Notes: generated by a model not told the origin, from the letters alone. A stretch of DNA of 64,000 bases from an uncultured Verrucomicrobiae bacterium (GCA_963818965.1 CAWFUG010000002.1:32001-96000), one strand, 5' to 3'. Positions 2,080-3,285 are shown, counted from the stretch's first letter. Numbers and translations: made by a program.

Positions 2080-3285
2080 ATGAATTGTGTTCGTCAATGT
2101 ACTGACAGGTTTCCTCGATTCTCCCAATTGGACATTGATGAATGCGTGAGAGAAACAGAGCAATCCCCCACTTTGCGCGCCAGGGTTTGTATGCATCCTA
2201 ACACTGAAGATCGGATGCAAGAGATGTTTATCGCCTTCAGCGGAAAAACCTATGTGCGCCCTAGCTTCCATACCAAAGATGAATCGTTCCACATGCTAGA
2301 AGGACGTGGCAAATATCTCTTTTTTGACGAGAGCGGCCATGTCACAGGACATATCCCTTTAGGAACTTATAACAGTGAATTCCCGTTTTATTGTCGCATT
2401 CCAACCCATCAGGCGCACGCGCTCGTTTTGCATTCTGCGCATGCAATGGCCCATGAGGTAATAGCCGGACCTTTTGAGAGAGCGAATACTCTCTTCCCAG
2501 CATGGGCCATCGATTACCAACAGGAGGAAGAGAGAGCGCAATTTAGAAAACGGTTTATCGACATGCCTATCTCTGCAATTCCCGATTGTCAATATGAGCG
2601 AATCACAGAGGAAATCTGTCGCGTAAAACCGGGAATTGTGAGCTTAAGAAAAGCAGACCTTAATTATTTAAAATCAGAAGTGGATCGCGTGCCGAGAAAG
2701 CAAATTCGCTTATGCATCCATCCTGGCGATGATGCTCTGTTGCATGAGACGTTCGCCGTCTACACAGGTTTAACGTATGTGCGTCCCCATCTGCATCAGG
2801 GAAAGGATGAATCTTTACATATTTTAGAAGGGGATGCGGATTTTATCTTTTTTGATGAGGTAGGGAATGTGCTCGATGTGGTCCCTTTAGGAACACAAGA
2901 TTCGGGGAAAAATTTCTTCGTGCGAGTGCCACAAGGGGTGTTTCATACGATTATACCCCGCCCGCTCAGGTTTTGCGAATTTGAGCTGCGTGAAAGCTCC
3001 CGCGATTCCACGATCGAAGAGGGGGCCTGTATTGAGGAAATACAGGCCCCCTCTTCGATCGTGGAATCCCGGGGCTTTGACGCGCTGAAATTCGCAAAAC
3101 CTGAGCGGGCGGGGTATATCATGCGGAGCGACTCTCTTGTGACCTACGAAGCCACTCCCGGACCCTTTAGGAGAGAAGAGACTCTTTGGGCCCCCTGGGC
3201 GCCGGTAGATTCTAATCAGGAAGAGATCGCTGCATATCTACAAAAACTAGAGAGCCAAATTCGTGAATTTAGAGATATTAGCTAA
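2080..3285 (+). CDS. Tandem WbuC-like cupin-fold protein carrying an in-frame palindromic insertion
   Basis: Two repeats of R-x-C-x-H...TYVRP-x-x-H...KDES-x-H-x-LEG...FFDE-x-G...GPF; probable start ATG 2080. Confidence 0.8.
   Translation: MNCVRQCTDRFPRFSQLDIDECVRETEQSPTLRARVCMHPNTEDRMQEMFIAFSGKTYVRPSFHTKDESFHMLEGRGKYLFFDESGHVTGHIPLGTYNSEFPFYCRIPTHQAHALVLHSAHAMAHEVIAGPFERANTLFPAWAIDYQQEEERAQFRKRFIDMPISAIPDCQYERITEEICRVKPGIVSLRKADLNYLKSEVDRVPRKQIRLCIHPGDDALLHETFAVYTGLTYVRPHLHQGKDESLHILEGDADFIFFDEVGNVLDVVPLGTQDSGKNFFVRVPQGVFHTIIPRPLRFCEFELRESSRDSTIEEGACIEEIQAPSSIVESRGFDALKFAKPERAGYIMRSDSLVTYEATPGPFRREETLWAPWAPVDSNQEEIAAYLQKLESQIREFRDIS
2952..3118. mobile_element. 167-nt palindromic MITE-like element (TATACCCC...GGGGTATA) inside the cupin CDS
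   Basis: Perfect 31-bp outer inverted repeat (2952-2982/3088-3118), perfect 30-bp inner stem (3004-3033/3039-3068), TA at both ends. Confidence 0.9.

Follow-up and report, generated by a model that had tools for sequence, protein, structure and literature searches.

Can a gene be entered by a mobile palindrome and still be read as a single open frame? This question is raised by a gene for a WbuC-family cupin in a 64,000-nucleotide stretch of DNA (hereafter the window) from an uncultured Verrucomicrobiae bacterium (GCA_963818965.1, CAWFUG010000002.1:32001-96000). An original prediction, made from the sequence alone, had placed a palindromic mobile element in frame within this gene. The element is mobile, it targets the dinucleotide TA, it is absent from the relatives of its host gene, it preserves the reading frame, and it behaves in the same way in about ten other genes. 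We consider it probable that positions 2954-3116 are a non-autonomous palindromic miniature inverted-repeat transposable element (MITE) that lies in frame in the WbuC gene, is read through, and was moved in trans.

The palindromic insert and its empty sites

The features of the locus, with the evidence for each in brackets, are as follows.

2080..3285, plus strand: host gene, a two-repeat tandem WbuC-family cupin of 401 amino acids, insert included (open reading frame (ORF), TIGR04366, homolog starts)
2952..2953, no strand: left copy of the duplicated TA target (sequence; empty sites carry a single TA)
2954..3116, no strand: palindromic MITE, TACCCC...GGGGTA, 163 nt (inverted repeats, fold, repeat family)
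2952..2986, no strand: outer left arm, partner of 3084-3118 (35 nt, 97% complementary; 31-bp uninterrupted stem)
2999..3033, no strand: inner left arm, partner of 3039-3073, with the loop at 3034-3038 (35 nt, 97% complementary)
3039..3073, no strand: inner right arm (inverted-repeat search)
3084..3118, no strand: outer right arm, right TA copy (3117-3118) included (inverted-repeat search)
2953..3117, plus strand: 55 inserted codons (IPRPLRFCEFELRESSRDSTIEEGACIEEIQAPSSIVESRGFDALKFAKPERAGY), phase ATA CCC (translation)

Judged by its profile match, the host is a tandem WbuC cupin gene of a sugar pathway. The NCBIfam model TIGR04366 matched the protein in two stretches, which correspond to the tandem repeat, and scored 198.6 bits (cut-off, 42). 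A Pfam search of the host protein gave no match at E<=0.01, and PF19480 is present in 111 WbuC homologs. The in-frame ATG nearest the 5' end is at 1999, and the ORF 1999-3285 is open throughout, element included; the start at 2080 is favored by the public gene call and by the homologs, whose proteins begin MNCVRQ. The public protein P0117 is an exact match to the 401-residue product.

The insertion reads ...ACG AT(TA)(TACCCCGCCCGCTCAGG...CCTGAGCGGGCGGGGTA)(TA)TC ATG..., and the peptides at its two junctions are ...GVFHTIIPRPLR... and ...ERAGYIMR.... Counted together with one TA, the element makes a net insertion of 165 nt, which equals 55 codons. Since this length is a multiple of three and the frame in which the element landed is free of stops, the WbuC gene remains a single open frame. 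The frames of the element encode only the 55-residue family peptide, and there is no transposase gene in its 163 nt. When folded, it formed uninterrupted stems of 31 bp and 30 bp with a minimum free energy of -153.7 kcal/mol. The value for 200 shuffled controls was -56.2 +/- 3.9 (z = -25 for the element), and no shuffle folded as well.

The original prediction had described much of this anatomy correctly. Excision of 165 nt does restore ACG ATT ATC ATG, the fold agrees with the two perfect stems that it had named, and both the ORF and the alignments agree that the insert is free of stops and adjoins a conserved histidine. The histidine two residues before the insert (H316) is invariant in 11 of 11 aligned sequences, and the same residue, numbered H289 in an alignment of 54 sequences, is conserved there at 90% or more. 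The gap-free alignment of the second cupin repeat, minus the insert, to the first was also seen, over 27 residues.

The 55 residues are missing from the homologs. In an alignment of 11 sequences, all ten homologs lack them and show a clean gap, HTI|IMRS; in the alignment of 54 sequences, exactly the same 55 residues are absent from all 53 aligned WbuC homologs. The claim that this is a 55-residue insertion therefore stands, as no homolog that lacks the palindrome retains these residues. Three of the insert-free proteins (P0118, P0119, and P0001; 345-347 aa) are 88-89% identical to the window protein, and clustering at 90% identity places these three, with the closest homolog among the members, together with the 401-residue protein of the window. 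One insert-free WbuC gene shares its contig with a transketolase subunit gene whose product is 94% identical to that encoded in the window.

Empty sites were found at the level of DNA as well. A 462-nt contig from a peat-metagenome run (X3), about 93% identical to the window, joins position 2951 to position 3118 with a single A between them, giving ACG ATA ATC ATG. At a second locus, contig C5 has a single TA where C12:76255-76417 reads TA-element-TA; C5 duplicates part of C12 (C12:70061-76254) at 94-96% identity. With filled and empty versions at two independent loci, TA targeting and TA duplication are each seen twice. Thus the TA duplication that had been predicted is borne out by two empty sites. 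On the other hand, the accompanying assignment to IS630/Tc1-type elements did not gain the same footing, as what speaks for it is the TA target and a terminal TATAC.

A palindromic insertion of about 80 nt at about C12:76445-76525 is also missing from C5. The presence of C5 beside its C12 counterpart suggests that the bin mixes strains or includes a paralogous region.

The repeat family and its copies within genes

The genome (G000) is a metagenome-assembled genome (MAG) of 2.24 Mb in 12 contigs, 87.85% complete. BLAST detected 81 loci of the family in it, and an nhmmer profile detected 104 (E<0.01). Matching ends, TATAC...GTATA, delimit 40 copies, the terminal sequence of family members being of the TATACCCCGCCCGG type, and 34 of these bounded copies are full-length. 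The net sizes of the 40 are 165 nt in 19 copies and 168 nt in seven, which form a second subfamily, while the rest are scattered; 28 of the 40 are multiples of three. The subfamilies diverge in their outer arms and have the termini and the inner stem-loop in common. The insertion in WbuC had been called recent, and this holds in a relative sense only: its nearest sister copy is 94% identical.

For a count of coding insertions, the 40 bounded copies were excised in silico, and an ORF counted as a host if it had a length of at least 178 aa and extended at least 30 aa beyond the copy in both directions. Thirteen copies lay inside such long ORFs, while the other 27 were intergenic or fewer than 30 codons from an ORF end. 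Ten of the 13 can be read from end to end without meeting a stop, and each of these has a length of 165 or 168 nt. The three interrupting copies comprise one of 166 nt, one of 167 nt, which splits a histidine-phosphatase-like gene, and one of 165 nt with a stop in its loop. The genome-wide frame bias that the original prediction had looked to is therefore present. An eleventh read-through copy, whose right TA is imperfect, lies in an RlmD-like gene.

A protein family was recognized in eight of the 11 read-through hosts; besides WbuC, they include SulP, a MenC-like enolase-superfamily protein, EPSP synthase (AroA), TRAM plus U5-methyltransferase, a leucine-rich repeat protein, RecC, and an M3 oligopeptidase (PepF). 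The AroA and RlmD orthologs of relatives matched in two adjacent segments, with the insert skipped.

The reading phase is ATA CCC (I-P...) in ten of the 11 copies, while the AroA copy is read in the other phase that is open. Within long ORFs, TA dinucleotides span codon positions 3|1 in 39% of cases, 2-3 in 34%, and 1-2 in 26%; by a hand calculation, in which two phases are usually open, the probability that at least ten of 11 copies share one phase is about 0.01. The copies have a mean of 2.73 open frames of six, compared with 0.78 for shuffled palindromes. When the family is counted as a single lineage, its stop-poorness is only suggestive (P = 0.078 for three or more open frames in shuffled palindromes).

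Two observations on the host proteins were made in passing. The sulP ORF (C9:99605-100801; L017:756-1952), which carries an in-frame copy, ends early with a tail that is out of character, and its Pfam match halts at profile position 236 of 380; to judge from this sequence, sulP may be frameshifted downstream of its element copy. Five proteins retrieved as WbuC "homologs" (P0112-P0116, four of them from G000) are unrelated to it. Their Pfam families include sulfate-transporter, enolase-like, and methyltransferase/TRAM domains, and their query coverage of 13-20% is consistent with a match to the element-encoded peptide alone.

All 34 full-length copies retain a nearly complete hairpin: each forms 69-80 pairs (of about 81 possible) with 0-3 G-U pairs, even though the subfamilies lie far apart. 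Among 25 oriented copies, double compensatory changes were found at 42 of the 69 consensus pairs. The window copy, for example, has the paired changes GCTCAGGTTTT / AAAACCTGAGC where sister copies read GGTCAGGAATT / AATTCCTGACC. Broken pairs and one-sided changes are rare, and mismatches of the A-C and G-U types have similar frequencies; this suggests that what is constrained is the DNA palindrome (or both strands) and not an RNA made from one strand. An Rfam scan of window positions 2700-5300 returned nothing at threshold. Its seven sub-threshold matches, none of them to a family of Rickettsia palindromic elements (RPEs), are microRNA-precursor look-alikes, the best of which scored 40.1 bits where the gathering score is 107. 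The coevolution of the arms suggests that one arm templates the other or that perfect hairpins alone transpose; put otherwise, we read the sequences as the progeny of symmetric masters that alone transpose, or as the product of correction of one arm by the other. These covariation counts are of related sequences and not of events, so that their strength is limited.

Within the taxonomic family, sequences that match the inner part of the element (about positions 26-138) with 72-81% identity were found in 45 of 121 genomes, a count that includes G000, and these represent 20 of 40 genera. The copies in relatives retain (T)ATAC...GTAT(A) ends and have different outer arms. In five relatives, 25 bounded copies comprise ten whose length is a multiple of three, 13 that exceed one by a single nucleotide, and two that exceed one by two nucleotides. 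We therefore rejected a length divisible by three as a property of the whole superfamily. Of 31 copies in the same five relatives, only two are inside long open frames, and each of these two measures 162 nt. From these two counts, dense occupation of genes seems to be peculiar to the 165- and 168-nt subfamilies of G000.

One of these 162-nt copies is in frame in a genome of a different genus of the family (L103, G062:C1:102389-105501), where ORF 1085-2347 encodes a protein of 421 aa. This copy uses the other open phase (Y-C-G-R...), and the protein contains HPYYDGNGRTARLL, which we take to be a Fic-type motif.

Across at least 20 genera, the conserved part of the superfamily is thus the inner stem-loop and not the termini. 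It is possible, and we propose it tentatively, that these are members of an old chlamydial superfamily of full-length hairpins shaped for life inside genes, maybe with hairpin-dependent mobility that would set them apart from classical IS630 MITEs.

The window holds further members of the superfamily, as follows.

4977..5132, no strand: diverged second superfamily copy, ATACCAATCC...GGATTGGTAT (nhmmer hit C2:36999-37110, sequence)
8380..8415, no strand: solo terminal-arm fragment, 36 nt (nhmmer hit C2:40380-40415, E 9e-4)
19532..19596, no strand: solo arm fragment, 65 nt (nhmmer hit C2:51532-51596, E 2e-3)

The copy at 4977-5132 provides about the ten last codons and the stop (5004-5006) of a transketolase C-subunit gene, and it ends 2 nt short of the ATG of the next gene (5135; a 342-aa ORF, 5135-6163). 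The transketolase subunit of a relative (P0121) is 94% identical and has 310 aa compared with 314, and the alignment stops at residue 301. Elsewhere in the genome, a unit of about 560 nt (C1:65976-66534) has the outer arms of the family at its ends and an unrelated interior in place of the inner stem-loop; it contains no long ORF.

Tolerated insertion, lesion, or artefact

According to the reading that we prefer, the MITE entered the second cupin repeat of the tandem WbuC gene at a TA, which was duplicated, and translation through it would add 55 residues to WbuC. The insert is located two residues past the histidine of the metal-binding motif, at the end of a strand and before the turn to the last strand. 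Selection would act as a filter, such that within genes only stop-free copies with a length divisible by three survive. The longer WbuC protein would then be made and would work.

AlphaFold2, run on the 54-sequence alignment, gave the 401-residue protein a mean predicted local distance difference test score (pLDDT) of 88.2 and a predicted template-modelling score of 0.84. Both barrels and the flanks reached pLDDT values of 96-98, while the insert had values of 33-45 and residues 296-348 were all below 50. The insert was placed between the histidine-bearing strand 288-293 and the strand 352-360. As the first codons of the element re-create the displaced isoleucine, the strand ...FHTII is kept. 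The model is compatible with a looped-out insert beside intact cupin barrels, and most likely the insert leaves the barrel, which is otherwise intact, as disordered sequence at the surface, by analogy with RPE-bearing Rickettsia proteins.

The element would have to be moved by a transposase encoded elsewhere. TA is given as the target of the IS630 family in passages of PMC2170065 and PMC2229807. Since this target is its basis, attribution to IS630 is something that we infer, namely mobilization in trans by a TA-targeting (IS630/Tc1-like) transposase that is absent from the assembly. In one relative, G084, an IS630-type insertion sequence (IS) is present in 16 copies with TA duplications, and its ends begin TATAC(T). 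A cognate autonomous IS with matching ends was not found in the 87.85%-complete assembly, and pairs of solo arms in G000 enclose no transposase, the pair on contig C4 lying within a self-inverted contig. Automatic detection of terminal inverted repeats around the DDE_3 genes of relatives returned nothing usable. A mariner model was blank in G000, but it was also blank in all 14 control genomes and its blank in G000 is therefore uninformative. An IS110-type gene in the window was rejected as a mover, being frameshifted and having no link to the element.

Two side observations belong here. Consecutive ORFs of 266 and 208 aa at 17066-18447 of the window, which we take to be the frameshifted IS110-type transposase, are part of a 1.7-kb unit that recurs at C9:448489-450216 with 99.65% identity. 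Contig C4 (624-22227) is a 21.6-kb self inverted duplication (99.5%) that repeats the end of C12 (C12:107355-115382) and is probably an assembly artefact; the ORFs that adjoin the element arms on it are presumably HigA-like and Fic/Doc-like.

Several observations weigh against an element that is moved in trans and tolerated in the protein. As regards the mover, the models for IS630-type (DDE_3), IS200-type (Y1), and rve transposases had no match in the 88%-complete assembly, which does not establish their absence. The resident IS4/5-type (DDE_Tnp_1) IS was tried and rejected, as it has unrelated ends and makes 9-bp duplications. Among 120 relatives, the element core is present in 44, DDE_3 in 44, and both in 14 compared with about 16 expected by chance, a count made on incomplete MAGs and on kin that are not independent. 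The IS630-type IS of G084 matches the element only at the terminal TATAC, and local alignment of eight arm types with both ends of this IS gave p >= 0.17. As regards the product, the hairpin inside the mRNA, at -154 kcal/mol and with perfect stems of 30 bp, is a plausible RNase III substrate, and the genome encodes RNase III (rnc); the WbuC protein may thus be made poorly. The AlphaFold2 model is driven by its alignment and cannot show that the insert is tolerated. The window protein departs from three of the 77 columns that are at least 85% conserved, while 11 relatives depart from none or one. Finally, Pfam recognized no family for three of the 11 host ORFs, which may not be real genes.

The rival that we take most seriously, although we think it rather unlikely, is the following: the insertion is a young, effectively disabling lesion, its frame is open by chance, and the second repeat is becoming a pseudogene through RNase III cleavage, ribosome stalling, or 55 residues that wreck the second barrel. 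Passages of PMC10969869 describe RNase III cutting of Correia hairpins in Neisseria mRNAs, a precedent for the same fate of the 30-31-bp perfect stems seen here. The insert lies two residues past an invariant histidine, inside the strand of motif 2, and besides the departures from conserved columns there are nine synonymous and ten non-synonymous codon changes against the metagenome relative. Some copies clearly do break genes (C2:97350 and C11:411773), and the apparent frameshift of sulP downstream of its copy would fit the same pattern. However, a relative-rate test found 19 changes specific to the window protein and 13 in P0118 (p = 0.29), and relaxed selection on WbuC was rejected as not significant by this test. 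The 401 codons contain neither a stop nor a frameshift, and the gene overlaps the next operon gene by 23 nt, an arrangement like that of an intact gene. AlphaFold2 puts the insert between strands and not within one. Moreover, ten other copies whose length is divisible by three persist in frame, with aroA and recC among their conserved hosts, and it is implausible that each of these insertions is lethal to its host protein.

Bypass at the RNA level, which the original prediction had offered as an alternative, went unsupported. The RNA would have to be removed by self-splicing or processing, or translation would have to skip it, to give an ordinary 346-aa protein. The hairpin ends do juxtapose the coding halves and the arms covary strongly, but this is circumstantial. 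No Rfam family was matched at threshold, and microRNA look-alikes below it are expected of any long hairpin. The near-equal A-C and G-U mismatches in the stems suggest that DNA, or both strands, is what is constrained. A filter that has left ten of ten read-through copies stop-free and divisible by three is to be expected if the element is translated, and there would be no need for it if the RNA were excised. We know of no mechanism in bacteria that would ligate an RNA after RNase III cutting, and we consider this explanation very improbable. Least probable of all is an assembly chimera or an old lineage-specific protein loop. The assembly, in 12 contigs and 88% complete, has signs of strain mixture and one palindromic contig, as an artefact might require, yet both flanks of the insert are unique and colinear with relatives, the insertion is exactly 165 nt at a TA, and the bounded unit is present at 40 sites that differ in their flanks. 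The insert is missing from relatives at 88-93% identity, which argues that it is not an old loop.

Relation to known elements and significance

The tolerated, read-through MITE that we favor behaves like an RPE, and on this point the analogy drawn by the original prediction holds: a family-specific peptide is placed in frame in unrelated conserved genes. RPEs, too, are palindromes of about 150 bp in an obligate-intracellular lineage. Protein surfaces are believed to tolerate their insertions (Ogata et al. 2000, 2002, cited in passages of PMC10969869, PMC2229807, and PMC1458961), and a gmk gene that carries an RPE is translated and active according to a passage of PMC2229807. The two differ in phylum, which is Chlamydiota-like here and Alphaproteobacteria for RPEs, in the clear TA duplication and near-perfect full-length hairpin seen here, and in number, with about 11 coding copies here compared with 53 of 526 in R. 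bellii (from a passage of PMC1458961); RPEs were compared by description only.

In anatomy, the element resembles the Correia (nemis) elements of Neisseria more closely. These are MITEs of 100-155 bp with TA duplication and no known cognate transposase. Their termini begin TATA..., and pairing is essentially confined to terminal repeats of about 26 bp, while the element described here, which is likened to them by description, pairs along its whole length. Passages of PMC10969869 report cutting of Correia hairpins in mRNA by RNase III, and parts of the same paper and of PMC2229807 describe a 107-bp class that is open-reading and found fused in genes.

The RUP elements of Streptococcus pneumoniae and other IS630-derived MITEs share the TA target, the small size, and the inverted ends. 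RUP is attributed to the transposase of IS630-Spn1 in a passage of PMC2229807, and its ends match those of its IS, whereas no IS630-type gene was found in the genome studied here. ERIC (127 bp) and YPAL of Yersinia (168 bp, 56 aa) are imperfect palindromes whose contiguous frames occur fused in frame in genes, as stated in a passage of PMC2229807. The length of YPAL equals that of the 168-nt subfamily, but ERIC and YPAL belong to an unrelated lineage and are mostly intergenic, and the likeness is one of description. Taken together, the behavior is that of an RPE analogue and the anatomy is closest to Correia-type TA-MITEs.

A literature search on MITEs, palindromic elements, and repeats in Chlamydiae found no description of such elements, and passages of the Waddlia genome paper mention only repeats >200 bp. 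The elements are a new chlamydial family of coding-compatible MITEs, of a kind that is known and is new in this phylum.

The family matters in several respects. Natural pairs with and without the insert are available for the tolerance of 55 added residues, namely WbuC and its insert-free relative of 89% identity, and AroA, RlmD, and RecC and their orthologs. The copies also offer a handle on a transposition system with an unusually strict hairpin symmetry. In the annotation of chlamydial MAGs, they inflate protein lengths and create spurious similarity, as in the four false WbuC homologs.

Colonization of conserved genes in frame by palindromes is best known from Rickettsia. That a second obligate-intracellular lineage, not related to the first, shares this trait suggests an explanation of general scope, in which the copies that persist in gene-dense reduced genomes are those that hide in coding sequence. 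If the reading of these elements as an old superfamily shaped for life inside genes is true, they would represent a convergent, RPE-like strategy of coding-compatible selfish DNA in a second obligate-intracellular phylum.

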